64,000 nucleotides of DNA from positions 1,880 to 65,879 of the forward strand of contig JBAZVT010000003.1 of assembly GCA_041660745.1 (NCBI GenBank), written 5' to 3'. This DNA comes from Minisyncoccota bacterium. Its GTDB lineage: Bacteria; Patescibacteriota; Minisyncoccia; Phycocordibacterales; JBAZVT01. Under the pieces are notes generated by a model. The model searched no databases. It worked only from the letters and a program-made list of their open reading frames with translations, and had not been told where the DNA came from. Shown here piece after piece: positions 14,826 to 51,082 of the stretch; the stretch's first letter is position 1, and each line of letters opens with the position of its first letter. A program made the position numbers and the translations under genes.

Positions 14826-15365
14826 ATGAAAAAAGCATCATATATTTTCTGTTGTGTGCTGGTGTATTCTGGCTTCTATACTGCACTGATAGTATCGGCA
14901 GCTTCTTCCTCTGTGGTTAATTCAATCACGATTACTTCAGAAACTGGGGGTAATACTGTATTGGGCGGTGAAGAAAGTCGGGGTACTTCTAATACACATA
15001 TCCAGGCAAAGACAATTATAGATGGTGTTGTAGTAGAGGATATTAATCAGAACTATTCTTCTACGAGTCCGGTTAATTTTAAAGAAACATACAATCAGAA
15101 TATTGGATCGGGAAATGAAACGGAGACAGTGAAAACAATTATAAAAGTTCAGGCGCAGACAGGTCAAAGTTCATTGGTGGAAGATTTTAATAAAAAGAAA
15201 GCGGCGACATCAACAGCCACAACGTCTCTCGCACGTCCTGTGAAGACAACGCAAGATGGTCACGTTGCGGCTTCGAGTTCAGTATTATTAGCCGAAGGGG
15301 GTTTGAAAGCGCGAGGCCTTCTTCAACAATTTATATCATATGTATTTTCAATCTTTCGTTTCTAA
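14826..15365 (+). CDS. exported Ser/Thr-rich protein with a degenerate copy of the TGD module
   Basis: N-terminal signal/TM (ASYIFCCVLVYSGFYTALIVSAA); TSETGGNTVLGG and low-complexity Thr/Ser stretches; sits between two related genes. Confidence 0.5.
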   Translation: MKKASYIFCCVLVYSGFYTALIVSAASSSVVNSITITSETGGNTVLGGEESRGTSNTHIQAKTIIDGVVVEDINQNYSSTSPVNFKETYNQNIGSGNETETVKTIIKVQAQTGQSSLVEDFNKKKAATSTATTSLARPVKTTQDGHVAASSSVLLAEGGLKARGLLQQFISYVFSIFRF

Positions 15366-18090
15366 ACATATTGTTTCACAAGGCAGAGGGATTGTTTCCT
15401 TCTGTATAATTTTTTCTTTGCTCTTGGCCCAAGGTGGTGCGGTTATTGTTGCAGGGGCACAAACACCTGATTCTAGTTTAGGTACGACAACAGAGTCTAG
15501 CACCATAACAGAAGCTGCTATTGTGCCAGAGGAAAATGATTCTGTGACGTCTATTACGACTGGTGACGCATCTGCGGAGAGTAGTGTGGAAACTGGAACA
15601 AATACCAATCTTATTTCTGAGGGGCAGAGTACATCTTCCTCGGACACCCTAATGGCAACGAGTACACACGATTCTTTATTAGAAGTGGCTACGACTAGCG
15701 CAACTACTTCTTCCGATACCACTACCACAGGCACAAGCACGTCTCTAGTACCTGATGAGGGTACAGAGGTTATTGTGGACACAACAAGTACGTCCACTAT
15801 TGTAAATAATGCCACAACTACTGCAAATACAGGTGTAAATGAAATTCAAAACGCAACATCGACCACGGCAACAAGCACTGCCACAAGTACAGCGGTTATC
15901 GATACTGGTGATGCGGCGGCTAGTACAAATATAATTAATGTTGCCAATGTTAATGTGTTTGATTCTAATGGAATGATCATGCTTCTTAATAGTTTATCTG
16001 GTATGACGGGTAATGTTGATTTGCGAGATGCACTCTCGGGAATTACTTTTGAATCATTCTGTGGCGAGGGGTGTGATGGAACGAGTACACCTTTATCTGC
16101 TCTCATTTCAAATAATAGTACATCAACAATTGATAATAACATTGTTGTTGGTGCTCAAACGGGGAATAACGGTATTTCTGGACCAGGCACTGACGGAACT
16201 ATTATGACTGGGGATGCGTATGCGGCAGCCAATGTGGTAAATATGGCAAATACAAATATTGTTGATTCAAATTATCTCCTCTTTGTTTTTAATGGGCTGG
16301 GAAATATGATTAATGGTGATTTTATTTTGCCGAGCGCAGGATTCTTCTCTAACTTTTTTTCTGGAAGTTCAGGAAGTAGTATGTCGGGGCAGTCTACTCC
16401 CGCAGTCTTATCTTCCACAACTGATCTAGATATACAAAATGAGAATTCGTCGATAATCAATAATTCCGTTGATGTTCATGCGGGCACGGGGGATAATAGC
16501 GTGTCGTCTGAAATGGGATCTACAACAGCTTCTAGTAGTATTGTAACGGGAGACGCACAGTCTGGAACAAATATTTTTAACGAGACTAATAGTAATCTTG
16601 TCGGCGGCGGATCGTTCATGGTACTTTTTAGAGTTTTTGGAAAATGGAGTGGAAATGTACTAAATACTCCAGACGGAATTCAATGGAAAGAAACACCTCA
16701 TGGGGTTGAACTTGTTGGAGATGTTCCTTCTGTTCTTGATTCAAGCGAGACAGATTCATCTGATCAAAATATATCAATTTCTAACAACAATAGTTCAAGT
16801 GTCACAAACAATATAGAGGTGTATGCGTTGACCGGAGATAATAAAATTACGGACAAAACTGGAAACTCTGAGATTGAGACTGGAGATGCATATGCAACAG
16901 CGAACGTAGTCAATATTACTAATACCAATATTGTTGGACGTAACTGGATTCTCGCAATCATTAATATCTTTGGTGATTGGGGAGGGAATATTTCTTTTGG
17001 TCAACCTGATTTGTGGGTTGCGGGGGAAGTGGAATCCCCTGGAAAGATTACGCGTGGTTCAGAACTAAAATACACATTTACTATTACAAACAAAGGCGAT
17101 GCTCCCGCGCATGATGTTGTGTTAAAGAATGTTTTTGATAGTCCATACGTGTACTTTGGAGAGAGATCAACTGATGTTCCTAATAATATGTCTGACTGGA
17201 ATATTGGAACATTGGCACCACAACAAACTGTTACTGTAGAAAAAGTGGCAACTGTAGACACGGGCTTGCCACGAGGGTCAACTCCCGTCTCGTCTGAAAT
17301 TTCTGTGCAGGGGAATGAAACTGATGCAAATACAGTAGATAATAGTGACGTTATATCATTTGTAGCTTCCGGATCTACGTCTTCAAGGGGTGGGAGTAGA
17401 CCTCGAGAAACAAAAATGCCATTACCAATACTTCTTGTTTCTACGACAAATGATGCGCTGACGACGCCTCTTATGGCTACTGCAAGTAGTAGTGTAAATT
17501 ATACTATTACAATAGAAAACAATGGGGATACTTCGTATAATTCCATCCTTACAAACACACTCAAGGATAGTTCTGGGGGTATTGTTAGTCAGGAACAGTG
17601 GAATTTGGAAATGATTGCTCCGCGTGAAGAAGTTTCTGTTTCATATACAGCTATCTTTGGCACAAGTACACCCCCCGGAGTGTATACCAATTATGCTCAG
17701 GTGGTCGCGTCCTCTTCGGAACAACTTGGGCAGTCTGTTGTCTCAAATGTGGCGACGAGTGCTGTGGTTATTCTTAGCCCAGAGGTCTTTAATGCAGGAT
17801 TTTCCTTTGCCACAACCACCCCTGTTCTTTCTACAGAGAACATTGAGCCACTTGCAGGGGCTATTTCAGACTCAAACATAGTTGATTCGTCCCCAGACGC
17901 TACTGCTGTGGAAAAAATAGATACTATAGTAAACAATCAGGTTGCAAATGTGGGAAGCGCGTGGAATTTTGTAGTGAGTCCATATTGGCTCATTTTCCCA
18001 ATACTTGGACTGATATCACTGGCATTATTAAAAAAGAAGGGTAGTGTGAGACAGTTTGCGAGGATGAGAAATAAGTTTACGGTTTGGTAA
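15340..18090 (+). CDS. large surface protein: four TGDN/TGDA repeat modules + two DUF11-like repeats + C-terminal TM anchor
   Basis: Signal/TM at N-terminus. Four repeats each ending in TGDA-x(3)-N-[VI]-x-N-x-[AT]-N-[TV]-N-[IV] then F/W-rich FG-W-GN motifs. Two DUF11-type repeats (LKYTFTITNKGDAPAHDVVLKNVFD and VNYTITIENNGDTSYNSILTNTL). C-terminal hydrophobic helix followed by KKKG. Confidence 0.7.
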   Translation: MYFQSFVSKHIVSQGRGIVSFCIIFSLLLAQGGAVIVAGAQTPDSSLGTTTESSTITEAAIVPEENDSVTSITTGDASAESSVETGTNTNLISEGQSTSSSDTLMATSTHDSLLEVATTSATTSSDTTTTGTSTSLVPDEGTEVIVDTTSTSTIVNNATTTANTGVNEIQNATSTTATSTATSTAVIDTGDAAASTNIINVANVNVFDSNGMIMLLNSLSGMTGNVDLRDALSGITFESFCGEGCDGTSTPLSALISNNSTSTIDNNIVVGAQTGNNGISGPGTDGTIMTGDAYAAANVVNMANTNIVDSNYLLFVFNGLGNMINGDFILPSAGFFSNFFSGSSGSSMSGQSTPAVLSSTTDLDIQNENSSIINNSVDVHAGTGDNSVSSEMGSTTASSSIVTGDAQSGTNIFNETNSNLVGGGSFMVLFRVFGKWSGNVLNTPDGIQWKETPHGVELVGDVPSVLDSSETDSSDQNISISNNNSSSVTNNIEVYALTGDNKITDKTGNSEIETGDAYATANVVNITNTNIVGRNWILAIINIFGDWGGNISFGQPDLWVAGEVESPGKITRGSELKYTFTITNKGDAPAHDVVLKNVFDSPYVYFGERSTDVPNNMSDWNIGTLAPQQTVTVEKVATVDTGLPRGSTPVSSEISVQGNETDANTVDNSDVISFVASGSTSSRGGSRPRETKMPLPILLVSTTNDALTTPLMATASSSVNYTITIENNGDTSYNSILTNTLKDSSGGIVSQEQWNLEMIAPREEVSVSYTAIFGTSTPPGVYTNYAQVVASSSEQLGQSVVSNVATSAVVILSPEVFNAGFSFATTTPVLSTENIEPLAGAISDSNIVDSSPDATAVEKIDTIVNNQVANVGSAWNFVVSPYWLIFPILGLISLALLKKKGSVRQFARMRNKFTVW

Positions 18091-18241
18091 ATATCGTTCA
18101 GAATTTCTAAAAAAGAGTACGTGTAAAATTCTACTGAATTTTCACTCGGTCTCGGCTACCCGCCTGCGAAGCCTCATTTTTAGAAAATCCTCACTCCAGT
18201 AGAATAAGGTGTCCTTCGGACTCTAGGATTAGGGTACATAG

Positions 18242-18274
18242 AAAAGCCGCCTGAGTACAGGCGGCTTTTCTTGT
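18242..18274 (+). terminator. rho-independent terminator after the surface-protein cluster
   Basis: aaaagccgcc-tgagtaca-ggcggctttt then cttg. Confidence 0.8.
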
Positions 18275-18317
18275 ATGTAGAGGAGGAAATGCCTTATTTT
18301 AAGCAAAATAACACATA

Positions 18318-18346
18318 TTGACGGAAGTACTCAAAAGGTGTATAAT
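18318..18346 (+). promoter_or_regulatory. near-consensus sigma70 promoter TTGACG-N17-TATAAT driving the GC-rich gene at 18418
   Basis: ttgacg at 18318-18323, tataat at 18341-18346, followed by a leader with small hairpin and canonical SD aaggagg at 18406-18412. Confidence 0.7.
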
Positions 18347-18417
18347 AGTATGTAGAGTGACTGAAGTCACAAACCGACTTCCGCCGGGTTGCGGATTGAA
18401 ATAAAAAGGAGGTCGTT

Positions 18418-18945
18418 ATGACCAAGGTTCAGGGTAATTGCGTTATTTTCTTGCTTGTGTCATTGATCATTGTTGGTTTTTGTATGCTTCCGGTGAACAA
18501 GCGTGAAAAACTGCTTCAGAATCAGTCAACAATGGCGCCGGCGGCAATGTCTCAAAACACCAGAGTCTTTCTGGATTACGTCGCTGGCAAGACAATCTCC
18601 AAGACTGACGTGGACGAAGCCTTTTACATAAGGGGTTCGGCTGGTTGGCTCGACACGGAGAAGATTCTTCGTGTGGCGAATGATCTCAAGGTTCCATGGG
18701 CTCAAGTCCATGATACGCTGGTTGTTCTCAACGAGAACTCGACAGTCATGTACATCGGTTCACAGGACAAGATTCTCGCCAAGTTTCGGGCGACCACTCA
18801 GCCAACCACAGCGCCGACGGTTCAGGTGGAGGCGACAAGTCAGGGTTCGTTGCCACCGGCAAGTGTCGTCGTCTATGGATGCTGGGCTCGCAACTATGTG
18901 GAGTCGGCGTACCAGGCGACTCATGATATGGGTCGGTGGGAATAA
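18418..18945 (+). CDS. hypothetical membrane-anchored protein on a GC-rich (about 52% GC) island
   Basis: N-terminal TM (CVIFLLVSLIIVGFCMLP); canonical AAGGAGG SD 6 nt upstream (unusual here); GC and codon usage differ from neighbours; no recognisable domain. Confidence 0.6.
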   Translation: MTKVQGNCVIFLLVSLIIVGFCMLPVNKREKLLQNQSTMAPAAMSQNTRVFLDYVAGKTISKTDVDEAFYIRGSAGWLDTEKILRVANDLKVPWAQVHDTLVVLNENSTVMYIGSQDKILAKFRATTQPTTAPTVQVEATSQGSLPPASVVVYGCWARNYVESAYQATHDMGRWE

Positions 18946-18968
18946 GGAAGATTACGTTTGGTTCTAGT

Positions 18969-19038
18969 GCCCGTGAACAGCAGTTCGCGGGCATAGTTTT
19001 TATAAAAAAACCGGCTGATGGCAGCCGGTTTTGTTTTT
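18969..19038. terminator. two terminator hairpins: one for the 18418 gene (+) and a bidirectional one shared with the VanY-like gene (-)
   Basis: gcccgtgaac...gttcgcgggc + atagtttttat; then aaccggctg-atgg-cagccggtt flanked by A7 and TTGTTTTT. Confidence 0.75.
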
Positions 19039-19924
19039 AATCAAAAAACTTTATGAGATAGGAGTCGATTTCTCGTTGATCCATATCGTAAAAATTCTTT
19101 TTATCTCGGTAGAGTTTTTTGGCGAGACTCTCTCCGACATATCTCCAATGCCAAGGTTCATATTGATAATAAGCATTGTTCTGCGGGTATGAAAGTATAA
19201 AACCATATTTATAGGCATTATCTTGAAGCCATTTGTATGCAATCGTTCCATCAAATTGAGAATAATCTGAACCTAATTTGGCGGTGGTGAGATCAACTGT
19301 TGTTCCGAGTTGGTGTTCAGAATATCCCTGGTCTGCAGAGAATTTATTCGCGCCCGCACCATAGATCACTTTGTAGCTCGAGTTTAGTGAAGTCTGTTCT
19401 CCAAAAGAGCGGTATGCAGAGATGATTCGTAAGTCAGTCCCTGTAGCTTGTACGTCCTCTAGCATTTCTTTTAGGTGGGGCCAAACACCAGATAGTATTT
19501 CAAGGGGGCGTTCTTTGTTGTTGAGATATTCGGTGGAGATTAGCCGCAGTCTTTTGGGTGTGTAATGTTCGTTAAGAAAAAATACTTTTGAATATTTTTG
19601 TAATAATTGTTCGTCTATTGCGTTAAGTTTTTCTAACTCACTAACAGAGCTAGAAATATCTTCAATCTGTTCATTAAAAAGATTGTTCTTCTCTTGTTCG
19701 GTAGCAAGGGCCTCGCTTAGATTAAACTTATCGGTTTCAACTTGGGTCAGTTTTTCGCTTAGGTCTCTATTGAGCTGAATTTCTGCTTGAAGCGCTTGGT
19801 GAGTGTTGCGTGCGATCAAATAGTAGCGGACTCCTCCCACAGCACATAACACAGTAATCCCAATAGTTATAGGGAACACAAAATGCTTATATTTTGAAAG
19901 GGATTCTGAAAAAGATGGGTTCAT
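19037..19924 (-). CDS. D-alanyl-D-alanine carboxypeptidase, VanY/peptidase M15B family, membrane-anchored with coiled-coil linker
   Basis: TM anchor, coiled-coil region, C-terminal RIISAYRSFGEQ...SEHQLGTTVDL...EPWHWRYVG motifs (Zn-binding H-x-D...H of VanY). Confidence 0.8.
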   Translation of the reverse strand: MNPSFSESLSKYKHFVFPITIGITVLCAVGGVRYYLIARNTHQALQAEIQLNRDLSEKLTQVETDKFNLSEALATEQEKNNLFNEQIEDISSSVSELEKLNAIDEQLLQKYSKVFFLNEHYTPKRLRLISTEYLNNKERPLEILSGVWPHLKEMLEDVQATGTDLRIISAYRSFGEQTSLNSSYKVIYGAGANKFSADQGYSEHQLGTTVDLTTAKLGSDYSQFDGTIAYKWLQDNAYKYGFILSYPQNNAYYQYEPWHWRYVGESLAKKLYRDKKNFYDMDQREIDSYLIKFFD

Positions 19925-19961
19925 GGGTAAGATTATACCATAAATACTGCTGCTTGTGGTT

Positions 19962-20129
19962 TTAGCCGTTACTGAGCTTAAACCCTAACCAAATGCCCCC
20001 AATCCCACCTACTGCGGAGAGCGTGATTGACCACATGGAGAGAAATCCCGCCCCCCAGAGATTTGGTACGTAGCTACCAATAGTAGAACCCACAATCATT
20101 CCGATCCAGATGAGAGATTTTGATTCCAT
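19962..20129 (-). CDS. small (55 aa) two-TM membrane protein, last gene of the ArsR-redox-permease operon
   Basis: MESKSLIWIGMIVGSTIGSYVPNLWGAGFLSMWSITLSAVGGIGGIWLGFKLSNG; ATG at 20127-20129, TAA at 19962-19964; below the ORF-track cutoff. Confidence 0.45.
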   Translation of the reverse strand: MESKSLIWIGMIVGSTIGSYVPNLWGAGFLSMWSITLSAVGGIGGIWLGFKLSNG

Positions 20130-20165
20130 GCGGATAGTATATCAAAAAATTAGTTCTTGTGTTTT

Positions 20166-21134
20166 TTAACTTAATATAATATTAAATATATAGCCCGTCG
20201 CAATAATCCCTGTAGCGACTATGCCAGCAAAAATGAGAATAAGTTGGGTTTTCATAACCTTCTTTAATATGATAAATTCGGGTAATGATAGTGCGGTGAC
20301 TGACATCATGAACGCCAACGCTGTCCCTACACTGACTCCCTTTTCCAAAAGAACACTCACAAGAGGAATGATGCCTGCCGCATTTGAATATAGTGGTATC
20401 CCTATAATTACTGCAACAGGGACGCTGTACCAGTGAGATGAGCCAATAATAGCAGTCAGGGCACTCGCTGGAACATAGCCATGAATAAGTGCTCCCAATC
20501 CGATGCCGACCAAGAGATAGGGCCAGACTTTTTTGATAATACCCAGTGTGTATTCGGAAGCAAAGTAGGCTCGTTTGGAGACGCTTATTTTTGTTTCTTC
20601 AAAATGAGCTGAAATTTTTTGTTTAAACACAAAGTCTTCGATGAGGTTTTCTGGTTTTAGGCGTCCAATGATAATACCACTCAGTATCGCGATTATTAAT
20701 CCTGTGATGACATAGAGGAGTGCAATTTTCCAACCAAACATTCCCAATAGAAGCACAAGAGCGACTTCGTTAATCATTGGAGATGATATGAGAAAAGAAA
20801 ATGTTACTCCAAGTGGCACCCCTGCCTGTATAAAACCTAGGAAAAGGGGAATAGCACTACAAGTACAGAATGGAGTAATGATTCCAAATAAAGACGCCAA
20901 GATATTACCAACGAATTCATTTTTTCTTACGAGAATACTACGTATTTTTTCCGCGGGTATAAAAGTTCTTACAAAAGAAATGGTGAAAATGATAATGACG
21001 AGCAGGAGAAGTATTTTGATTGTGTCATATATGAAGAAGTTCACAACGTGTGCAATGTGTGTTTCTGTCTGGATGTTTAAAATAGTAAAAGTTAGAAAGT
21101 CTGCAACAATTTTAATAGGATAAAATATGTCCAT
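20166..21134 (-). CDS. COG0701/DUF318 permease (ArsP-like, TPFCTCS motif)
   Basis: 8+ TM helices; conserved ITPFCTCSAIPLF motif characteristic of the YraQ/ArsP permease family; operon with thioredoxin-like and ArsR genes. Confidence 0.65.
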   Translation of the reverse strand: MDIFYPIKIVADFLTFTILNIQTETHIAHVVNFFIYDTIKILLLLVIIIFTISFVRTFIPAEKIRSILVRKNEFVGNILASLFGIITPFCTCSAIPLFLGFIQAGVPLGVTFSFLISSPMINEVALVLLLGMFGWKIALLYVITGLIIAILSGIIIGRLKPENLIEDFVFKQKISAHFEETKISVSKRAYFASEYTLGIIKKVWPYLLVGIGLGALIHGYVPASALTAIIGSSHWYSVPVAVIIGIPLYSNAAGIIPLVSVLLEKGVSVGTALAFMMSVTALSLPEFIILKKVMKTQLILIFAGIVATGIIATGYIFNIILS

Positions 21135-21146
21135 GTAAATAAATTA

Positions 21147-21389
21147 TTAAGCAGACTGTTGTAAAATTATATTTTTTATTTTCTCCATATCCGCCGTTGC
21201 TCCAACCAAGACAACCTTATCGTTAATGACAAGCACGGGGCTCTGTAAAAGTCCCATTGCCACTATTTTCTGAATATCGCTTATATATTCGATTTCTGCC
21301 GTAATACCCATATCTCTTACGGTAGTTTGTACCAACTCAAACATTTTTTTACATGTAGGACATCCTGAACCAAGCACTTGGATTTTCAC
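21147..21389 (-). CDS. thioredoxin-fold redox-active disulfide protein 2 family (CPTC motif); GTG start
   Basis: MKIQVLGSGCPTCKK... 80 aa; family typically co-occurs with the COG0701 permease and ArsR. Confidence 0.7.
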   Translation of the reverse strand: MKIQVLGSGCPTCKKMFELVQTTVRDMGITAEIEYISDIQKIVAMGLLQSPVLVINDKVVLVGATADMEKIKNIILQQSA

Positions 21390-21401
21390 GAGATATAGAG
21401 A

Positions 21402-21641
21402 TTATTTAGCGAGTAATGATTTAAATACTTCTGGTTGAAAACCAACAATGATATTGTTATCTATTTGAATTACAGGCACGCCCATCTGACCGCTTTTTTC
21501 TACCATTTCTTCACCAGCCTTTCTATCTTTGCTAACGTCAATATCTTCAAAGGGGACATTATTTTCTTTAAAGAAATCTTTTGCGTAAACACAGTATGGA
21601 CATGTTGGCGTTGAATAGACTTTTACGGTGTGGTTTTTCAT
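21402..21641 (-). CDS. glutaredoxin-like protein (NrdH/YruB type, TCPYC)
   Basis: VKVYSTPTCPYCVYAKDFF...GVPVIQIDNNIIVGFQPE. Confidence 0.75.
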   Translation of the reverse strand: MKNHTVKVYSTPTCPYCVYAKDFFKENNVPFEDIDVSKDRKAGEEMVEKSGQMGVPVIQIDNNIIVGFQPEVFKSLLAK

Positions 21642-21670
21642 ATTGTTTTTTAATTATTGTTAATTTGTAA

Positions 21671-21943
21671 TTATTTGTATTTACAGATCAATTTTTTAAG
21701 ATCTGATACAAAAGGTTTGTCGGGAAGTTGATAAAAAGTACATTTGCCTTCTTGTGTGGGGTTAAGTAAGCCGTCGCGTTCCATAATGTGTAAGTGATGG
21801 GATACAATTGCGACGCTCATGGCGAGTTCTTTTGCAATGTCTGATACGCAAATTTTTTTATTATTAAAAATAACGCATAGAATTTTTAGACGGTTTTCTT
21901 CACCAACAGTCTTTAGTGCTTGTGCTAGTTCGTTCAAATGCAT
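21671..21943 (-). CDS. ArsR/SmtB-family metalloregulatory transcriptional repressor
   Basis: ENRLKILCVIFNNKKICVSDIAKELAMSVAIVSHHLHIMERDGLL winged HTH. Confidence 0.8.
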   Translation of the reverse strand: MHLNELAQALKTVGEENRLKILCVIFNNKKICVSDIAKELAMSVAIVSHHLHIMERDGLLNPTQEGKCTFYQLPDKPFVSDLKKLICKYK

Positions 21944-22022
21944 GTTTGAATGATATACCTAATAGAAAAAGATGTCAACAAAGTAAAAACTCACACAATC
22001 TACAAATTGTGTGAGTTTTTTA

Positions 22023-23066
22023 TTAATTTTTGTTTAAAGTTATTTCTGAAGTTTTTTCTGGGGTTATAGTATTCTTGATAATATCCCAGTAGGTTGAGTC
22101 TCCTTTTTTTGTTTTTTGCCAATACCACCATTCTGATCCCCACATATAGACTCGCGATGCTCCAACACGGCGAGCGTAATTAATATTTTTTTCTAATTGT
22201 CGCGGATTCATTGTTTGTTCTTGTGTAGAAATGTCTGTGGTGAGGGGGGATCCATTATGAAACCATGGTTCACCTTGCAGTTCTGAAATAAAGAAATTAT
22301 CAAAACTGTTACCAAATAAACGTGCTTTTATTCGGTAAAGTCCTGCGGGAAGATAGTCGTAGTGCCACACGAAGCCGTAGCGAGAAATGATAAGTCTGTA
22401 TAGCGTTGAGCCGAGGATGTCTCCTGTTTTTGATGCTGAATACCATATAGACATCTCACCACTGTCCGTCATAACAATTTTACGGGTGGGATCCAATTGT
22501 CGTACGAGTGCGACTTCACGTTCAACGAGTGTTTTGTCAAAGGCATCGCAATCGCCAAAATCAAATTTGATAAAAGGCTCGTTTTCAATTTGCCAGTATT
22601 CTATGGATGGATTATTTTTGTATCTTTCAATCGCGTGTTGTATATAAGAGAGTACTTCTGACTGTCTTTTTTCTTTACTAAGTTCTCTTGCCCACTGGGG
22701 AAAATAACATTCTGGCCACCGGGGTATTTTTTGTCCGACGACAAAAAGAATTTTTGTATTATGTTTTCCCGCCTCATTCACAAGATAATCTGTTTCGGAA
22801 AAATCAAATGTTCCTTGTTGGGGTTCGAGCTTATTCCAGGGAGCGGATAAGCGTATCATTGTGGGTTTGAGGTCAGCAAGTATTGCTTGATATGTTTCTT
22901 TCCAGTCAAGGCCGAGAGACTCAGCGTATTCTGGACTGAAACTTACGCCAAATCGGGTGTTGGAGATATTATAAGAAAGAGTCCATAGAATCCCATATAT
23001 AAGAATGAGTATACCTATCAGTATTACGAGTATTCTTTTAATATATTTTAAAATTTTTTTATACAT
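22023..23066 (-). CDS. membrane-anchored glycoside hydrolase, clan GH-A TIM barrel (family unresolved)
   Basis: N-terminal TM; WQIENEP motif (GH-A catalytic acid/base NEP), WGSEWWYW aromatic C-terminus; last gene of an operon with GT28 and a membrane protein. Confidence 0.5.
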   Translation of the reverse strand: MYKKILKYIKRILVILIGILILIYGILWTLSYNISNTRFGVSFSPEYAESLGLDWKETYQAILADLKPTMIRLSAPWNKLEPQQGTFDFSETDYLVNEAGKHNTKILFVVGQKIPRWPECYFPQWARELSKEKRQSEVLSYIQHAIERYKNNPSIEYWQIENEPFIKFDFGDCDAFDKTLVEREVALVRQLDPTRKIVMTDSGEMSIWYSASKTGDILGSTLYRLIISRYGFVWHYDYLPAGLYRIKARLFGNSFDNFFISELQGEPWFHNGSPLTTDISTQEQTMNPRQLEKNINYARRVGASRVYMWGSEWWYWQKTKKGDSTYWDIIKNTITPEKTSEITLNKN

Positions 23067-23083
23067 ACTATGTTAAATCAGCT

Positions 23084-24004
23084 CTAAAGAAATAAAAGAC
23101 CCGTAACGATAAGTACTATTGCTAGCGTCTGCATGATAAATTCTTTTCGAGTAAAATCTTCGGAGAATATTTTAGGGCGCATTTTTGTAAGAAGAAATAT
23201 AAAAATAAATACAAGGACATATTGTAAGCCAGCAAGCGCATTGACGATTGCCACACTTCCTATTGCAATAGCGTATTGAATACAGAGGGTGGAAACAATC
23301 CCAAGAGTTTTTGTTGTTGCAAACTTTGTGATTGATCCTTTTTGTTTTTCTACAGGTTGTTGCTGTGACTGTTCTGGAATGGCAACTTTTTTGTTGAATA
23401 TTTGTTTTCTAAAGCGGGGAATTAAAATAATGGCAATACCAACAATTCCTATTGAGCTTTTTGTCCAGATGAGTCCATTAATGAAGGGGTAGAGGGTGTA
23501 GATGTGTTTTGCGGAGATGTGTGAAAATGCAAATAGTAATCCGGAAATTATCGCCCACAGGAAGCCAAGATAGAGACCTTTTTCTCTATTGCTTTTTTCA
23601 TAGGAAAGAAAAAAGCTTGCGCCAATGAGAAGGGTGAGTCCTATTTTTTCATGCGGACTAAATGATGTGTTGAGTACAAAATACGAAAGAATAGCAGTTG
23701 CGACTGCGACTACCGCACCGACAAGTGGTGTAAGGTGGCTCGCTTCTCCGTGTCTGAACGCTATGTACATGGCCCACACTCCAAGACCGAAAGATATACC
23801 TGAGCCGAGCGACCACAACAAGTCTATGTTGTGTGGAAATCCAAAAAACGGTAGAAGGACTACAGTTATTGCTGAGAAGATTGTTGTGTAAAAAGCATAT
23901 ACTGCCGGATGTTTGAAGTTTGTTGTCAGAATACTTTTGTCTAATATTGAGACAAAAGCTAGAGCTGCATATCCGACAGATGCAAAGATAAATGAAGTGA
24001 TCAT
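23084..24004 (-). CDS. polytopic membrane protein (about 10 TM; DMT/EamA-like, function unknown)
   Basis: Hydrophobicity pattern only; 4-nt overlap with the upstream GT28 gene. Confidence 0.4.
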   Translation of the reverse strand: MITSFIFASVGYAALAFVSILDKSILTTNFKHPAVYAFYTTIFSAITVVLLPFFGFPHNIDLLWSLGSGISFGLGVWAMYIAFRHGEASHLTPLVGAVVAVATAILSYFVLNTSFSPHEKIGLTLLIGASFFLSYEKSNREKGLYLGFLWAIISGLLFAFSHISAKHIYTLYPFINGLIWTKSSIGIVGIAIILIPRFRKQIFNKKVAIPEQSQQQPVEKQKGSITKFATTKTLGIVSTLCIQYAIAIGSVAIVNALAGLQYVLVFIFIFLLTKMRPKIFSEDFTRKEFIMQTLAIVLIVTGLLFL

Positions 24005-25356
24005 AAGAAGTGGATATCTTGTATCTCTGTTTTGGTGCCTTGAGTAACGACGTTTATAATATTTTTTGTGCCATGTTTCGGACCATTCAAATAACCGTCC
24101 AGCGCTCCTTCAGCGAGAAGTCCTGAATTAATCCAGTCAAAAAGCCATTGGTGGGTATATCGTGAATCATCCTGCTGGAATCCAGCACCAATCATTTGCA
24201 ACCAAGATTTGTTGAATGTTTCTTGGGATCCGACAGTTGGTGCCATGATGATTGGAAGTCCGAGTCCTGCGTAAAATGAAAGCTCGCTCGGTTTTGTCCA
24301 GAGTAGATCAGTTTCTTGTAGGATCATGTCGAACTCCTTGAAATATTCAAATTTGTTTTGGTTGTATATAATCTGTATTCCGTTGTTATAGAGATCTTTT
24401 AAATTATTTTTTTCAATTGCTTCTTCAAATTTTTCTTTAATTATTTTTGATGAGCCTGCTACGAGATTTATTTTGATGGCCCCTTTTTTAATAGCTTCTG
24501 ATAGGGATGAGAGAACTTGAATACCGATTTCACTCTGTGCTCCAGCACCACCAATAGCGAAAGTGATTGTGATAGGAGTGTTGTCATATATCGCTCGCTT
24601 GATTTTTCCACAGTGTGCAGAAATAGTTTTGTTGAATTTTTTTTCAAAAATACCACGTGGGTCAAGTTTAATTATTCTGCGAGAAAGAGCCTTGAGTAGA
24701 ACATTGTCAGTATCGTCTGTTCCAATAAGTTCTTCAGGAAGCGGAAAACCAGTCACAATTATTTTTTGAGAGTTTACGCCATACATCTGTAATCGTTCTT
24801 GCACTCGGCGAGTTGGGGCAAGATAGGTAATTCTGCTTGTCTCTGGATTTAAAGGTGCCCACGCACGAGAGATATCGGTATCCGTGCAAAGACAATAGAT
24901 GTCACCGGCATATCCATGTTCTTCGGCAAAAAAGGCTGCAGTAAAAAATGTCGCCACAAAAGGGAGGGGTTTTTTGTTGAGAGTATCTATCAGATCTTTT
25001 CCAAAACCTTTATGTATTGCTCGGTATGTTTTTTGTAGTTGGGCTGTTGGTTTTGAAAGGTCTCGTTTTGGGTAAAACTGTTCAATCGTCTGAAAGAAAT
25101 CTAAAATACCGAAGATTATTTTCCCAACAAGAGGAAAACTCGTCATTTTGGAAAACCAATTATATCTTTTTTCCATTGTGTCCCAGATAATTTTATCGCT
25201 TTGTGCAATGCCGGGATAATTGTTTGCTGCGATAATCATGGGTTCTTTTATATTCCACTGTGGTGGTGTGGTTGCAATTGAAAGGAGGGGAAAACCGGCT
25301 CGCTGGTGTCCATATCCCATATCAACAGCGACTACGTATACATGTTCATGTTTCAT
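24001..25356 (-). CDS. GT28-family glycosyltransferase (MGDG synthase / UgtP / MurG-like)
   Basis: N-terminal VYVVAVDMGYGHQRAG motif resembling the GGGH motif of monogalactosyldiacylglycerol synthase/MurG N-domains; C-terminal Rossmann-like domain. Confidence 0.5.
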   Translation of the reverse strand: MKHEHVYVVAVDMGYGHQRAGFPLLSIATTPPQWNIKEPMIIAANNYPGIAQSDKIIWDTMEKRYNWFSKMTSFPLVGKIIFGILDFFQTIEQFYPKRDLSKPTAQLQKTYRAIHKGFGKDLIDTLNKKPLPFVATFFTAAFFAEEHGYAGDIYCLCTDTDISRAWAPLNPETSRITYLAPTRRVQERLQMYGVNSQKIIVTGFPLPEELIGTDDTDNVLLKALSRRIIKLDPRGIFEKKFNKTISAHCGKIKRAIYDNTPITITFAIGGAGAQSEIGIQVLSSLSEAIKKGAIKINLVAGSSKIIKEKFEEAIEKNNLKDLYNNGIQIIYNQNKFEYFKEFDMILQETDLLWTKPSELSFYAGLGLPIIMAPTVGSQETFNKSWLQMIGAGFQQDDSRYTHQWLFDWINSGLLAEGALDGYLNGPKHGTKNIINVVTQGTKTEIQDIHFL

Positions 25357-25443
25357 ATAGATAGATTATAGCAAGTAATCTATCTGTTGTGCCATGATAT
25401 AACTGTGAATAATAGAGCCTGTTTACAATCTAATGTTTGAAAC

Positions 25444-25487
25444 AAAAAAGACGAGCGAGTTTTGGAAAACTCGCTCGTCTTTTTTGG
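25444..25487. terminator. bidirectional rho-independent terminator
   Basis: aagacgagcgagtttt-ggaa-aactcgctcgtctt flanked by A6 and T6. Confidence 0.8.
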
Positions 25488-25497
25488 TATGTAATAA

Positions 25498-25653
25498 TTA
25501 CAAGCTGAATGTGGTGCCGAGGAAATATGGCCAAAGGATAATGGCGAGTACTCCTTTCCAGAAGGCGAGGTGAAGAAAGCCTATGGTGAAAAGCCATGCT
25601 CCTACCCATAATAACCCCGCACAACCACCTTGATTGACGTTTATTTTTTGCAT
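25498..25653 (-). CDS. putative small (51 aa) two-TM proteolipid (Pmp3/YqaE-like?)
   Basis: MQKINVNQGGCAGLLWVGAWLFTIGFLHLAFWKGVLAIILWPYFLGTTFSL; inner part of ORF 25498..25800; weak call. Confidence 0.3.
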   Translation of the reverse strand: MQKINVNQGGCAGLLWVGAWLFTIGFLHLAFWKGVLAIILWPYFLGTTFSL

Positions 25654-25724
25654 GGTTTCAGTGTATAATTTTTTTATGTGAAATGAGGGAAGAGTTTTAT
25701 TGCTATGGTAGGATGAGATAAGTA

Positions 25725-25763
25725 TAAAAAATCCGTCGGGAACCACTTGGTGGTTCCCGACGG
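25725..25763 (-). terminator. rho-independent terminator downstream of the purH fragment (minus strand)
   Basis: ccgtcgggaaccac-ttg-gtggttcccgacgg perfect 14-bp stem, followed on the minus strand by a T-run. Confidence 0.75.
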
Positions 25764-25792
25764 GGTATTGGCTGTATGCCGAGATAGGGGGG

Positions 25793-26392
25793 TTACCCAT
25801 GCTTGACTTGCGGAGTGAGGAATCTTTGCCCGCTCGCTTTTTTCTGACGCATCCACTTCGTGATCATCCGGTCGTAGTCCGAGGTAGCTGCAAAGACCTT
25901 GATCACCAACCTCTCGCGCTGGTCTTCCGAGATAGCGCCGGTTACAGTCAGTGATGCAACCACCCACTCATAATCGGTAGGATCAATGACCGGGATTGTC
26001 GAGATCCCGTTCTTGGACGCTGCGCGGATGAGCGAGGGGCCGCCGATATCAATCTCCTCAATGTCAGGTTTGTTCTTGAAGTCGTACAGATTGACCACGA
26101 CGAGATCAATCAGGTCGATGTGGTGCTCGACGAGCGCCGCAAGGTGTGCGGGAATGGCTCGTGCGGCGAGTATGCCGCCGAAGATGTTTGGATGGAGTGT
26201 CTTGACACGGCCGTCCAGCATTTCGGGAAAGCCCGTGACCTGCTCAATCGGAGTTACCTCGATGCCGACTGCCCGCAGTGCTTTCGCCGTCCCGCCGGTA
26301 GAGATGAACTCCCAACCTAGGGTGGCGAGCGGAAGAAGTTTTTCCAACCCACTCTTGTCCGTAACCGACACCAGTGCTCTTGGCATTGCCAT
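25793..26392 (-). pseudogene. purH: purH N-terminal fragment: MGS-like/IMP cyclohydrolase domain only (199 aa), AICAR transformylase domain absent; GC-rich, SD-bearing
   Basis: ALVSVTDKSG...STGGTAKAL...GFPEMLDGRVKTLHPNIFGGIL...VVVNLYDFK...IDIGGPSLIRAASKN matches PurH residues about 1-195; the ORF stops where bifunctional PurH continues. About 55% GC, AAGGAG SD 6 nt upstream. Confidence 0.7.
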
Positions 26393-26479: not shown

Positions 26480-27529
26480 TCAAGATTTTGTACTCGTCCA
26501 CCACATATGAGACTCTGACGCTGGTAATGTAGACACAATATACCTCAAAGGAGATACAAGACCAAGCGACCAATGAGGACGCCTAGTGTTGTACCAAAGT
26601 AACCAATTAATGAGAGCTTCATTAAAAGCATCAATGTCATGAGCTAAAAGTTTTCTGTTTCTGTTAACAAAAGCTTCCACAACAGTTCGGTTGAATCGTT
26701 CAACTTCAGCGTTCATTTTTGGCGATCTTGGATATGTGTGAAAATGAACGATGTTGTTCTTTTCAAGCAGAACGTCAAAGTGGTCAGCAAACTCACTACC
26801 ATTGTCTGTTTGCACATGCGTAACAGGAAGTGGTGCAACATGTTTAAACTTCATCATGAAGTCAGCAGATGCTTTTGATGAATGAGAAGTATACGCATAT
26901 GCAAAAGCAAATTTTGATTCGCAATCAATACCAGTGAGCAAATATCTTTTAATACCATCGGTGAAGCGGATGACCGAATCTGCTTTAACTAGTCCTCCTT
27001 CGTGACCTTTAGAACGCAGTTTCTTGCGTTTAACTCTGATTTTCTCTCGAAAGGTATCTGATTTTGCATAGTATGAAAGTTTCGTATATTTTGGAAGTTT
27101 TCCTTGTTTCTTGAGATCATTTAACATTCGACCGACAGTAGATGCGGAGAGATCGGCAACCTTGTCTTCTTTCATGAGTACCGCCAGTTTGTCTTTGGAA
27201 AGTCTTGGATCATTCTGGCGTTCCTTGAGAATGAAATCTTCTACAACTTTTGGGATGACACGTTTTCTTCTTTGTTTAGGAGCAGTACTTTTTTTGTTGA
27301 GAAACTCCAGTTTTCCCATACCATCTCGAAGTTCTTTTTGCCAGCGAAAAAGAGTTGGTCTTGAAATGCCAAAGGCTTCTTTAGTGGCAGTTGTTCCATA
27401 CTTCTCCCAAAACGCTAATATCCTGCACCTTTCTTTTGCGGTTTCGCTAATCATATACTTGAAGCGTATCACACGCTCCCAAGTACTAATGAAGCCCTTT
27501 GTTCCTCTAAATTTATTGAAAATGCGCAT
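26480..27529 (-). CDS. IS481-family transposase (HTH + rve integrase core, DDE)
   Basis: N-terminal HTH; TGIDCESKFAFAYAY...HVQTDNGSEFADHF...YPRSPKMNAEVERFNRT integrase-core motifs. Confidence 0.85.
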   Translation of the reverse strand: MRIFNKFRGTKGFISTWERVIRFKYMISETAKERCRILAFWEKYGTTATKEAFGISRPTLFRWQKELRDGMGKLEFLNKKSTAPKQRRKRVIPKVVEDFILKERQNDPRLSKDKLAVLMKEDKVADLSASTVGRMLNDLKKQGKLPKYTKLSYYAKSDTFREKIRVKRKKLRSKGHEGGLVKADSVIRFTDGIKRYLLTGIDCESKFAFAYAYTSHSSKASADFMMKFKHVAPLPVTHVQTDNGSEFADHFDVLLEKNNIVHFHTYPRSPKMNAEVERFNRTVVEAFVNRNRKLLAHDIDAFNEALINWLLWYNTRRPHWSLGLVSPLRYIVSTLPASESHMWWTSTKS

Positions 27530-37250: not shown

Positions 37251-37361
37251 TTCTGGCGGCTAGCTACTTTCCCCTCCATAAGAGTATCATCACCGCAAGA
37301 GAGCTTAACTTCTGAGTTCGGAATGAGATCAGGTGTATCCCCTCCGCCATACCACCAGAAC
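37251..37361 (-). rRNA. rrf: 5S ribosomal RNA
   Basis: Minus-strand sequence gttctggtggtatggcggagggg...ccgaactcagaagttaagctct...gccgccagaac matches the 5S consensus (CCGAACUCAGAAGUGAAAC loop C). Confidence 0.85.
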
Positions 37362-37519
37362 TTAAAATTCGATATATCAAAAAACAAACCTAATAATTAC
37401 ACGGAAATACACACATCTCGCCCATCGCGAGTAGTATATAATTCCATGTAACAGGGTAAAAAACAAAAAATCTTTCTGTGACGTATCACAGAAGTGGATC
37501 TCAAATTTCCTAATAGAAA

Positions 37520-40895
<3,376 letters not shown>

Positions 40896-41221
40896 TTCCC
40901 ATTAGGAAATTTAAGAACCACAATATATTTTTTGTTTTTGTTTTACCCTGTTACATAGAATCATCTACATAACAAGTTACTTCTACATTTTACCTGCGTA
41001 TCTCCAGCTTCGAAAAGACCATATAAAATGGTTGCTGGGATACAATGAACAAATCTTATCCCGATGTGAATCGAGAATCAGCAAATGTTATTTTTCAAGG
41101 TATCGATCGTTCGGAAATAAAAAACCGCTTTTTGAGGCGGGGGTGGACTACACAAGAATACTTGGTCGTCTAACTCCGCTTTAAAATGTGGTTAGTGATC
41201 TGCATATCTGTAATGGGTATT

Positions 41222-44299: not shown

Positions 44300-44660
44300 T
44301 TGGAATTTTTTACGAACGTAGTGAGTTTAAAATTCCCACCCTGTTAAATCCCCTGAGTACAGGGAATCATAGAAATCTGATTTCTATGACATTTAACAGG
44401 GTTGTGAAAATATATTCGCTAGGCTCGTTATTTTCTACAAAATAAATCGACCCGTAAGGGCCTGATAAAAGTGAGATCTCACATATCAATAGATATGTGA
44501 GTAAACCTCGATAGGCTATTCCAGCAAAGCTGGACGCCCGTCCACCGAAGGTGGATTAGGGACCTGTATTAAAGCGGTTTTCCGCTGCCTATTGTCTTTG
44601 GCCTTACGAGGTACATATTTACATAAAATAGTTCACTTGTAAAGCAAGTACCCGCAGAAC
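44300..44660 (-). promoter_or_regulatory. rplJ (L10) 5' leader, likely autoregulatory L10-leader structure
   Basis: About 360-nt structured non-coding region upstream of rplJ with multiple hairpins; position is canonical for the L10(L12)4-binding leader. Includes the family E palindrome at 44337-44403. Confidence 0.45.
44337..44403. repeat. repeat family E copy 1 (CACCCTGTTAAATCC ... ATTTAACAGGGTT with variable hairpin core)
   Basis: Same 11-bp terminal inverted repeat ccctgttaaat/atttaacaggg as at 60946-61002; inner sequence differs but is itself a hairpin. Confidence 0.7.
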
Positions 44661-44707
44661 AATCTTTTTAAAAAATATATAATTTTCTACTAAAACCCTC
44701 CATTATA

Positions 44708-44741
44708 AAAAGGGTGCGGTCCGCAGCGGACCGCACCCTTT
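44708..44741. terminator. GC-rich terminator hairpin bounding GC-island 3 (bidirectional)
   Basis: aaagggtgcggtccgc-agc-ggaccgcaccctt followed by TGTTTT (+) and preceded by TTTTTATAATG (-). Confidence 0.75.
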
Positions 44742-44770
44742 GTTTTCCAACCGAGCGACACAGGTGGTCG

Positions 44771-45031
44771 CTACTCTTCTTGACCGTTTTCAGGGCAGTC
44801 CGGTTCCAACTCACAAGAGAAGTAGTACCCGAGACAGACTCCAAAGAGAATGAAACCAATCGGTCCCCCAACAACAGTAAGAGCCCTGCCCCAGAAGTCC
44901 GATTCCCTTGGCTCAAGATGACTCCGGAAAAGTCCGAAATCCTGCCAAAGAAATATCAAAACGCTCCAGACAGAACAGCAGGCCCAAAGACATGGAAGCC
45001 ACTGATAAGGATTGTGAAAAAAGGCACTCAT
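44771..45031 (-). CDS. small two-TM membrane protein (86 aa) on GC-rich island, canonical SD
   Basis: MSAFFHNPYQWLPCLWACCSVWSVLIFLWQDFGLF...ALTVVGGPIGFILFGVCLGYYFS; AGGAG 9 nt upstream of the ATG at 45031; the ORF-track entry 44771..45271 is an upstream over-extension. Confidence 0.5.
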   Translation of the reverse strand: MSAFFHNPYQWLPCLWACCSVWSVLIFLWQDFGLFRSHLEPRESDFWGRALTVVGGPIGFILFGVCLGYYFSCELEPDCPENGQEE

Positions 45032-45077
45032 ACAGCATCTCCTTTCCCGAAAGTTCCTACACAGAAGGCAAGTACGA

Positions 45078-45365
45078 TTACTCCTGCATTGGTTTGTGCA
45101 GTATTCTTTCACGCCTCGCAAGCGCCCCCGCAAAATCGTGAGCACATATTGAGATGGGTCCGAAGAGGACCCTGAATATGTACAGACGCCACGATGCCCA
45201 CGAGAATTTCCCCCGAGAAAGATCTGGGAAGAAAACGAACGCAGCGCCGATTGAGTAGCGCAGCCACGCAAGAACCGCGAGGCCTACAACAACAGCAACG
45301 ATCCCGACGGGTACAACCAGACATTCCCACATAAGAATCTCCTTCCAAAAAATAAACATCCACAT
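45078..45365 (-). CDS. small membrane protein (95 aa) on GC-rich island, SD-bearing
   Basis: MWMFIFWKEILMWECLVVPVGIVAVVVGLAVLAWLRYSIGAAFVFF...; GGATGAGGAAAG upstream of the ATG at 45365; the track entry 45078..45458 starts at TTG. Confidence 0.45.
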   Translation of the reverse strand: MWMFIFWKEILMWECLVVPVGIVAVVVGLAVLAWLRYSIGAAFVFFPDLSRGKFSWASWRLYIFRVLFGPISICAHDFAGALARRERILHKPMQE

Positions 45366-45407
45366 TCTTTCCTCATCCTTTATACCACACCTCATATCTA
45401 ATATCAA

Positions 45408-45439
45408 AAAGACCCGGGCATGTGTATGCCCGGGTCTTT
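45408..45439 (-). terminator. terminator hairpin inside GC-island 3
   Basis: aaagacccgggcat-gtgt-atgcccgggtcttt; T-run on the minus strand. Confidence 0.7.
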
Positions 45440-45464
45440 GTCCTAATGATTTGGACAAACTACT

Positions 45465-45704
45465 TCACCCCTGAAACATGTTCGCAAGAGCAATGCGCTG
45501 ACCGACACCGACGTATGGCTTCTGTTCAGAAGCAGGGAAACAACCTGCTAGCGGTGTTCCATACCCCTCGGGACCCCACAACGAACCAGGCTTGTGATAC
45601 CCACGTCCACACGATGCGACAGCCGCCAAGTCGCAAGGAGGCAGGCCACTCACATCTGCCCACGTCAGATCGCTCACCTCAGCAGTAACGTAACCGCCAC
45701 GCAT
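45465..45704 (-). CDS. hypothetical 79-aa protein on GC-rich island, GGAGG SD 5 nt upstream
   Basis: MRGGYVTAEVSDLTWADVSGLPPCDLAAVASCGRGYHKPGSLWGPEGYG...; no similarity recognised. Confidence 0.4.
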   Translation of the reverse strand: MRGGYVTAEVSDLTWADVSGLPPCDLAAVASCGRGYHKPGSLWGPEGYGTPLAGCFPASEQKPYVGVGQRIALANMFQG

Positions 45705-45783
45705 AGTGCCTCCATAGGTAAAAGAAAAGTTTATTCCGCGAACGCTCTATCACCAGAGTACCATATTGGAAGCATCGTGGGTA

Positions 45784-50386: not shown

Positions 50387-51082
50387 TTATTTTGGCTCAC
50401 CTCTTAAATCTCCAAGATCCCTGAACTCAAGCCAGTCAGAAACAATACTTTCAAAAGATGGCGCTGGAGACGAAAAGTAATCCGGAAACTCATCAGCTTT
50501 TAGTATTTTTGATTCAGGTCTTAAATTAAAGTTAATTTCCACATATTCCTTGTAACTTGAATATTTATAATTATCTAAGAAATTCTCAGCTTTTTGCATG
50601 TCCACAACCCCCCTCTCTTTCCACGCAGGATCAATAATCTTTACCGGATTTAAATGTATATATGAAACTAAATACTTTAAATATTCGTCGGTATTTGCAT
50701 GAACTGCTTTAAATCGGCTCTCAAAAAGACTTCCGGTCCGTGTATTTTTTCTATTGAAATACATTGAGTATGACGTAAGCAATTTACCCAAAAATTTACT
50801 TATACCACCTTCTTCTGTTTCTTTTAAAAGTATGTGGAAATGATTTGGCATCAAACAGTATGCGCCGACAGAAACAATACTATCTTTCTTTTGAAAATTA
50901 AAAATATCCTTAAATTCCTTCTCAATCTCCCTAAAAGTTATATTTTGAGATGTATTATAAACAAATAAACCTTTAATAAAACGTTGATAATCTCTTTCGT
51001 CCTGAAAAATAAAGCGTTTATCAACGCCTCGAGCATAAATGTGATAGTACTCTCCTACACTAAATTCGATTTTTCTTTGCAT
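50387..51082 (-). CDS. REP-associated tyrosine transposase (RAYT) / IS200-like Y1 HUH transposase (COG1943)
   Basis: HUH motif LMPNHFHILL; C-terminal SRFKAVHANTDEYLKYLVSYIHLNPVK matches the RAYT catalytic-Tyr region (compare RFWEH...DYIYINPVK). Confidence 0.85.
   Translation of the reverse strand: MQRKIEFSVGEYYHIYARGVDKRFIFQDERDYQRFIKGLFVYNTSQNITFREIEKEFKDIFNFQKKDSIVSVGAYCLMPNHFHILLKETEEGGISKFLGKLLTSYSMYFNRKNTRTGSLFESRFKAVHANTDEYLKYLVSYIHLNPVKIIDPAWKERGVVDMQKAENFLDNYKYSSYKEYVEINFNLRPESKILKADEFPDYFSSPAPSFESIVSDWLEFRDLGDLRGEPK

Follow-up and report, generated by a model that had tools for sequence, protein, structure and literature searches.

A probably foreign single-gene cassette with a canonical Shine-Dalgarno site in an SD-poor Paceibacterota genome

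How does a gene with a canonical Shine-Dalgarno (SD) site and a high guanine-plus-cytosine (GC) content come to stand in a genome whose genes almost all lack such sites? This question is raised by a short GC-rich island in contig JBAZVT010000003.1 of a Minisyncoccota bacterium (assembly GCA_041660745.1), of which a stretch of 64,000 nucleotides (contig positions 1,880 to 65,879), hereafter the window, was analysed. A sequence-only reading of the window had placed the island at 18300-19038 and taken it for a gene recently acquired from a higher-GC, SD-using donor, possibly a host bacterium. The results described below indicate that it is probably a foreign, autonomous ORFan cassette of ~910 bp, inserted between the convergent genes of a DUF11 surface protein and a VanY peptidase in this Paceibacterota genome. 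Of the earlier proposal, the foreign origin has held up; the recent date and the host-bacterium donor are not supported.

The insertion is visible by comparison with a sister genome. The closest homologue (P0127, 70% identity) of the window's IMP cyclohydrolase led to a 69-kb Logan contig, L167, which is syntenic with window positions 15340-26392. The proteins flanking the insertion share 71-95% identical residues with their orthologues on this contig (VanY 75%, DUF11 71%, DUF6938 80%, EamA 79%, a glycoside hydrolase 81%, glutaredoxin 95%, ArsR 86%, and a 55-amino-acid membrane protein 81%). In the sister, the convergent DUF11 and VanY genes are only 40 bp apart, and this interval consists of 11 nt followed by one bidirectional terminator, AAAAACCGGCTGGTTACAGCCGGTTTTT. 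In the pairwise alignment, the DUF11 orthologues can be aligned as far as the stop codon (18090), where homology ends, and it picks up again at ~19005; hence, ~910 bp in the window stand against 11 nt between stop codon and terminator in the sister. With the borders mapped to ~10 bases in this way, the island is absent from the one close relative at this exact junction, and the real unit proves larger than first proposed, starting at 18091 (Table 1). An independent Logan assembly (L001, 14.9 kb) is base-identical to the NCBI contig (80.8 kb) over 18091-19037.

Table 1. Features of the locus and of related sequences (window coordinates unless a contig handle is given)
Feature	Coordinates	Strand	Basis or remarks
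Inserted segment, ~910 bp	18091 to ~19004	n/a	alignments with sister L167
Left flank, gene of a 916-aa (amino-acid) DUF11/CLIPPER surface protein with C-terminal membrane anchor	15340-18090	+	Pfam DUF11, E 1.7e-12
Small structured element: closing stem, GC-rich hairpin, AT-rich hairpin with AGNA/TNCT loop	18101-18189, core 18115-18176	n/a	blastn, covariance model
Terminator T1	18240-18271	both	perfect 14-bp hairpin, inverted repeat I4, 100% complementary
Sigma-70-type promoter match: TTGACG (18318-18323), 17 nt, TATAAT (18341-18346)	18318-18346	+	11/12 positions; function assigned by position
Predicted 5' leader, ~65 nt	18353-18417	+	small hairpin 18357-18370; SD site 18406-18412
Open reading frame (ORF) for the 175-aa ORFan protein	18418-18945	+	GC1/GC2/GC3 (GC at first, second and third codon positions) 0.54/0.41/0.585
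Terminator T2, the cassette's own	18967-19004 (hairpin 18967-18994)	+	12-pair hairpin, then T-run; terminator scan
Terminator T3, native, bidirectional, common to the convergent DUF11 and VanY genes	19007-19032	both	conserved in L167 as AAAAACCGGCTGGTTACAGCCGGTTTTT
Right flank, gene of a VanY/LdcB-type M15 peptidase	19037-19924	-	Pfam VanY, E 3e-32
Stand-alone IMP cyclohydrolase (PurH N-terminal MGS domain) gene	25793-26392	-	GC3 0.675, SD AAAAAGGAG
Weaker copy of the structured element	L016 336-399		27.6 bits
Weaker copy of the structured element	L167 2196-2256		23.4 bits; elsewhere in the sister, directly upstream of tRNA-Asn, behind a TATAAT box
Weaker copy of the structured element	L023 3263-3322		18 bits
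h186 and AAA_28 genes of the sister	L167 5122-5682 and 5877-7022	-	GC3 0.72 and 0.58
Native genes with a TGnTATAAT-like box, start regions (examples)	19924, 20129, 25356, 36971, 43064	-

The neighbours of the island are ordinary chromosomal genes, encoding the DUF11 protein, the VanY/LdcB M15 peptidase, a small membrane protein, ArsP, thioredoxin, glutaredoxin and ArsR, and no phage or mobility gene was found within 10 kb on either side. A blastn comparison of the insert with the rest of the window, with phages and with plasmids gave no match. An IS200/IS605-type insertion sequence (IS) or a miniature inverted-repeat transposable element was considered and rejected, as neither similarity to the window's IS elements nor terminal repeats nor a target duplication was observed. 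A 10-nt direct repeat around the promoter (18273 and 18348) is within chance, ~0.8 such pairs being the estimate for the region.

The ORF differs from its surroundings in base composition. Its GC content is 0.511, against 0.411 for the window as a whole. The native ORFs of the window (n = 49) have a GC content of 0.406 +/- 0.032 and a GC3 of 0.343 +/- 0.050. Relative to these, the island ORF has z-scores of +3.3 (GC) and +4.9 (GC3), and of -4.1 in its synonymous codon usage. The highest GC3 reached by any native 175-codon window is 0.543. The description of the gene as GC-rich and compositionally foreign is borne out by this comparison, in which it is an outlier. The rise in GC is limited to the coding region, mainly 18500-18960 (0.50-0.60, with a peak of 0.60). 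Up to ~18500, the promoter, the leader and the first 30 codons have GC contents of 0.39-0.44 and resemble the rest of the genome, and past 18960 the values drop to 0.37-0.39.

Is the frame a gene at all? The pattern GC1 > GC2 < GC3 supports a coding sequence, and an open frame of this length is reached in 1.25% of the region's dinucleotide shuffles. Promoter, SD site, ATG, stop codon and terminator follow one another in the correct order and with the correct spacing. Because the SD site, ATG, stop codon, terminator, codon-position GC pattern and rare frame length are combined here, the ORF is considered to be a real gene, presumably an expressed one.

The most distinctive of these signals is the SD site. 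The canonical AAGGAGG noticed earlier is present, with a spacer to the ATG of 5 nt instead of 6. To place it among the genes of the window, the duplex energy of the anti-SD sequence with the 20 nt 5' of each start codon was calculated, and a site was called strong at -8 kcal/mol or lower. At -12.3 kcal/mol, the island duplex is the strongest among 51 window genes, whose median is -0.9. Just two of the 51 genes have strong sites, and these are the window's only two GC-rich genes, the other being that of IMP cyclohydrolase (-8.2 kcal/mol). The statement that almost no native gene has an SD site is therefore upheld. Native, highly expressed genes with both an SD site and a similar GC content would have spoken against a foreign gene; however, the L10, L7/L12, RecA and FtsK genes have neither.

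This scarcity extends beyond the window. In ~115 related Patescibacteria loci (GC 30-65%), the same crude measure gave SD fractions of mostly 0-0.2, whatever the GC content. Among 112 loci, SD sites precede 7 of 49 high-GC3 outlier ORFs vs 32 of 1126 others, a ~5-fold enrichment (Mann-Whitney p 0.005). A strong SD site together with a high GC3 may be a marker of imported genes in this clade. The host genome and the related loci, nearly without SD sites, resemble the SD-poor Parcubacteria reported previously (PMC9297842), whereas the island gene differs from them in its canonical strong SD site.

The other expression signals are less diagnostic. The near-perfect TTGACG-N17-TATAAT promoter is present, but its value as a foreign mark is not: two of the other equally good matches precede the native 23S rRNA and ArsR genes, and since these native promoters fit the consensus equally well, it does not identify the cassette as foreign. 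The leader, previously described as structured, folds no better than shuffled sequences (z -0.38). The gene is indeed bracketed by terminators, T1 upstream and T2 and T3 downstream; yet conservation in the sister marks the rightmost of them, T3, as native, and only T1 and T2 belong to the insert, T2 lying within the segment that the sister lacks. The single ORF is thus enclosed, as judged by sequence matches, by a promoter and a terminator of its own. Since the T1 hairpin is flanked by an A-run and a T-run, it is able to act both ways, and it probably now terminates the DUF11 transcript and insulates the cassette.

The 175-aa product, a hypothetical protein in the NCBI annotation, has a single hydrophobic segment at residues ~8-26 (Kyte-Doolittle 19-residue mean 2.9), with no other above 1.6. 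The ~95 residues after this helix are predicted, with low confidence, as mixed helix and strand; they are followed by a Pro/Thr/Gln-rich linker (residues ~124-148) and a 27-residue tail. Neither an AXA site nor a lipobox was seen by eye. AlphaFold2 was uninformative, with pLDDT (predicted local distance difference test) values of 44 for the full protein and 47 for residues 33-130. Searches against Pfam, NCBIfam, PHROGs, PADLOC and PDB sequences returned only noise, and no match was found in GenBank phages, PLSDB plasmids or IMG/VR, nor in Rfam over the ORF, even at E up to 10. The only match in an index of 5.8 billion clusters is the protein itself, and the same holds for an exhaustive HMMER search of 1.84 billion representative proteins. 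The four other HMMER matches (E up to 2e-4) are long repeat proteins in which many weak ~30-residue repeat matches are summed, and were rejected as artefacts. Likewise, neither L167 nor L168 nor the related loci (1.58 Mb) contain any trace of the protein. The earlier description of a membrane-anchored product with no known domain agrees with the single predicted N-terminal segment and the lack of any family match, and the product would be a small membrane-anchored or secreted protein.

Collectively, these features suggest how the cassette might work. The segment would have entered just upstream of the terminator common to DUF11 and VanY, bringing on its left side a small structured element and terminator T1 and, behind them, a -35/-10 promoter, a ~65-nt leader with a strong SD site, a 175-codon ORF and terminator T2. 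A monocistronic mRNA of ~0.65 kb would be transcribed. Ribosomes would be recruited to it by SD/anti-SD pairing, unlike for the other genes of the genome, which requires that an anti-SD be retained in the 16S rRNA. The N-terminal hydrophobic helix would hold the product in the membrane or export it through the membrane, and the product may act as an accessory protein of the cell envelope. The donor would be an SD-using organism of ~50-60% GC.

Further information on the origin of the insert comes from its left end. The left 180 nt are strongly structured, the fold of 18091-18278 reaching z -4.5 on the + strand and -6.0 on the - strand, but this is largely due to the T1 hairpin, which dominates it. 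Within this part lies the small structured element, 61 nt of which (18115-18175) are 80% identical (blastn E 9e-9) to positions 9628-9688 of L133, a contig from a distant member of the Patescibacteria; the match contains a perfect 26-mer. There the copy is intergenic, between def and fmt. Four base-pair changes in the AT-rich hairpin between the window and L133 are compensatory. A covariance model (R1) built from these two sequences detected the three weaker copies listed in Table 1, whereas no Rfam family matches the element at 18101-18189. These occurrences show that part of the inserted DNA belongs to the patescibacterial sequence repertoire, and they hint that the insert may have come through the patescibacterial gene pool. 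Because the left-end element occurs in other Patescibacteria, the case for an origin in a host bacterium is weakened, though not removed.

A separate observation concerns the surroundings of the L167 copy. The tRNA-Asn gene there (2290-2363) has its first 13 nt repeated 130 nt upstream (2157-2169) and its last 18 nt repeated ~210 nt downstream (region 2400-2590); the stretch between looks highly structured. These repeats could be the scar of a tRNA-integrated element or a tRNA-derived RNA.

When and from where did the gene arrive? The second GC-rich SD gene of the window, that of IMP cyclohydrolase, is instructive in this respect. It resembles the island gene in its high GC3, its SD site and its single-gene arrangement, but differs in having many homologues, Patescibacteria included, and in being shared with the sister, which carries it at the same syntenic place, with an SD site and a GC3 of 0.72. 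Between window and sister, 52% of the codons for identical amino acids keep their third base, as compared with 50-57% in the flanking genes. In a relative of 61% GC (L169), the gene is compositionally native, with a GC3 of 0.89, and partial amelioration from such a donor, a slow shift towards the base composition of the recipient, would explain its present GC3. IMP cyclohydrolase is thus an older acquisition than the island, with its composition kept. Since it keeps the signature despite diverged synonymous sites, GC content and SD site cannot date an acquisition, and the claim of a recent arrival is not supported; the sole dating evidence for the island is its absence from the sister. Nor can a donor be named, because no homologue was found in the collections searched; the homology search proposed earlier thus gave no donor, and a host bacterium, as noted above, is not favoured by the left-end element either. 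The sister has two private GC-rich SD-bearing genes, both absent from the window, which encode a 186-aa protein (h186) and an AAA_28 ATPase. This suggests that GC-rich SD-led imports may reach the lineage in a continuing trickle. As a side observation, the IMP cyclohydrolase gene adjoins an rve-type IS transposase gene at 26480-27529 (- strand).

Several observations weigh against a working foreign cassette. In a published survey, just 48% of Parcubacteria 16S rRNAs were found to carry an anti-SD motif (Tsurumaki et al. 2022, PMC9297842), and neither the window nor the Logan contigs reached nor any of the loci fetched contained a 16S gene. For this reason, the island SD site may be a relic without function, and translation of the gene may be poor. 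Promoter matches as good as that of the cassette number 4 in the window vs 2.3 +/- 1.5 in shuffles. No direct repeats were seen at the insert borders, and no mobility gene near the insert, attachment (att) site or target-site duplication was found. The protein lacks any credible homologue, and its charges (+1 before the helix, net +2 after) do not settle its orientation in the membrane. Finally, only one sister genome was found for the DUF11-VanY junction, which leaves room for a loss in the sister in place of a gain in the window's lineage. A VanY-based search for further relatives in genome contigs, metagenome contigs and the protein index gave relatives of 45-65% identity, the best of them at 50-65%, and no synteny; synteny was also lacking in two more relatives, reached through cyclohydrolase and examined as possible outgroups. 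Because the word-indexed protein search missed the sister's 75%-identical VanY on a Logan contig, the protein index is not exhaustive, and negatives from it alone need care.

How far do these points favour other explanations? The foreign DNA may be real and the ORF not a working gene, that is, a dead-on-arrival fragment or a chance frame with an inert SD site, as the missing homologues among 1.84 billion representatives, the AlphaFold2 confidence of 44-47, the 1.25% of shuffles with an equally long frame, the absence of the anti-SD motif from many Parcubacteria (PMC9297842) and the SD-poor lineage would allow. Yet the frame is intact, the positions of its SD site, ATG, stop codon and terminator are exactly those expected of a real gene, GC varies over the codon positions as in coding sequence, and an N-terminal helix followed by polar sequence resembles a real membrane or secreted protein, so that a dead ORF is unlikely. 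Equally, the GC-rich stretch might be the gene of a structured non-coding RNA with an incidental ORF. Such RNA genes often form the GC-rich islands of AT-rich genomes, and for 18500-18960 the + strand gives a somewhat more stable fold than its shuffles do (z -2.5, vs -0.5 for the - strand). However, this z-score is modest, Rfam gave no match even at a permissive threshold, and an intact 175-codon frame with SD site, ATG and coding-type GC1/GC2/GC3 is present, making an RNA gene highly improbable. Least credible of all is an assembly chimera or contaminant: the genome is metagenome-assembled and the island differs in composition from its surroundings, but the flanks run on into the same genome, the NCBI and Logan contigs agree base for base, and a 0.9-kb piece lying exactly between stop codon and terminator is unlike the way chimeras arise.

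Two further explanations concern the history of the segment. If the gene were ancestral and deleted in the sister, its odd composition would stem from gene-specific constraints. The direction of change is indeed inferred from one sister only, and IMP cyclohydrolase shows that a high GC3 and an SD site can be stably inherited. Nevertheless, gain is favoured over loss because the composition and SD site are alien to the whole clade, because neither the other patescibacterial sequences searched (1.58 Mb of related loci) nor the global protein libraries contain a homologue, and because the sister's junction is the compact arrangement, so that a deletion would have to span exactly from stop codon to terminator. 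An ancestral gene is accordingly regarded as very unlikely, and the ~910 bp as probably gained in the window's lineage. The segment might otherwise be an accessory gene brought by a phage or mobile element of Patescibacteria, e.g., for a superinfection-exclusion or surface-modifying protein, and not a gene of a host bacterium. It would then be comparable to the morons of lambdoid prophages described by Hendrix and colleagues, which are single ORFs with their own promoter and terminator between two genes that a relative has side by side. The island shares this layout and a base composition unlike its surroundings; its left-end element is common to other Patescibacteria, the sister has the private GC-rich SD-bearing h186 and AAA_28 genes, and small membrane ORFans are typical cargo of mobile elements. 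Unlike a moron, however, the island lies outside any prophage, flanked by chromosomal envelope genes and without a phage match. The lack of phage or mobility genes within 10 kb, of matches in IMG/VR, GenBank phages, plasmids and PHROGs, and of a visible att site or target duplication renders such a delivery improbable.

The inserted ORFan cassette may also be compared with the horizontally acquired islets and ORFans of the amelioration model of Lawrence and Ochman. It shares with them an atypical GC3 and codon usage and a patchy distribution. Bacterial ORFans, however, are usually AT-rich and short, while the island is GC-rich with full expression signals, and neither direct repeats nor a tRNA target or a mobility gene accompany it. 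Taken alone, one imported ORFan is a common finding; it is the canonical SD site in an SD-poor lineage that deserves attention. The locus offers a clean, bounded case of gene gain in a reduced genome of the episymbiont type, and its product, a presumed envelope protein without a family, joins the candidates for surface functions specific to symbionts. The fate of SD-led imports also bears on translation initiation in Parcubacteria, which are often without an anti-SD. A broader proposal, though a quite doubtful one, is that SD-poor Paceibacteria repeatedly import a class of GC-rich single-gene cassettes led by an SD site, private ones occurring in each genome and some, such as IMP cyclohydrolase, being shared; the left-end structured element could then belong to the vehicle by which they move. 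If this were true and the 16S rRNA lacked the anti-SD, imported genes would be translated by another route, providing a natural experiment on expression after SD loss.

Some features of the window stand apart from the island. Approximately 1.1 kb upstream of rplJ (44650-45784) have a GC content of ~0.48 and no credible ORF; the rplK-rplA genes usual upstream of rplJ are not there. An L10-leader match adjoins this stretch at 44431-44619, with 31.6 bits, below the gathering score of 44. Decayed genes or a large non-coding RNA could account for the stretch. At 50387-51082 (- strand), an IS200-like Y1 transposase gene has a low GC content of 0.32, and its ends have no similarity to the island. The 23S rRNA gene (37507-40906, - strand) measures 3400 nt vs 2925 nt in the model, i.e., ~475 nt of insertion(s), with a 5S gene at 37251-37359 and no linked 16S gene. 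Such insertions are frequent in rRNA genes of the Candidate Phyla Radiation.

The native genes also differ among themselves in their start regions. By a strict test, ~6 of 48 native genes, a 2-fold enrichment, carry a TGnTATAAT-like box whose end lies 6-8 nt in front of the start codon, and the remaining native genes have neither an SD site nor such a box near the start. Since only these ~6 of 48 passed, a wider claim, by which the majority of native genes would be leaderless, is not upheld. For this subset, the position of the box suggests that leaderless mRNAs may be produced.

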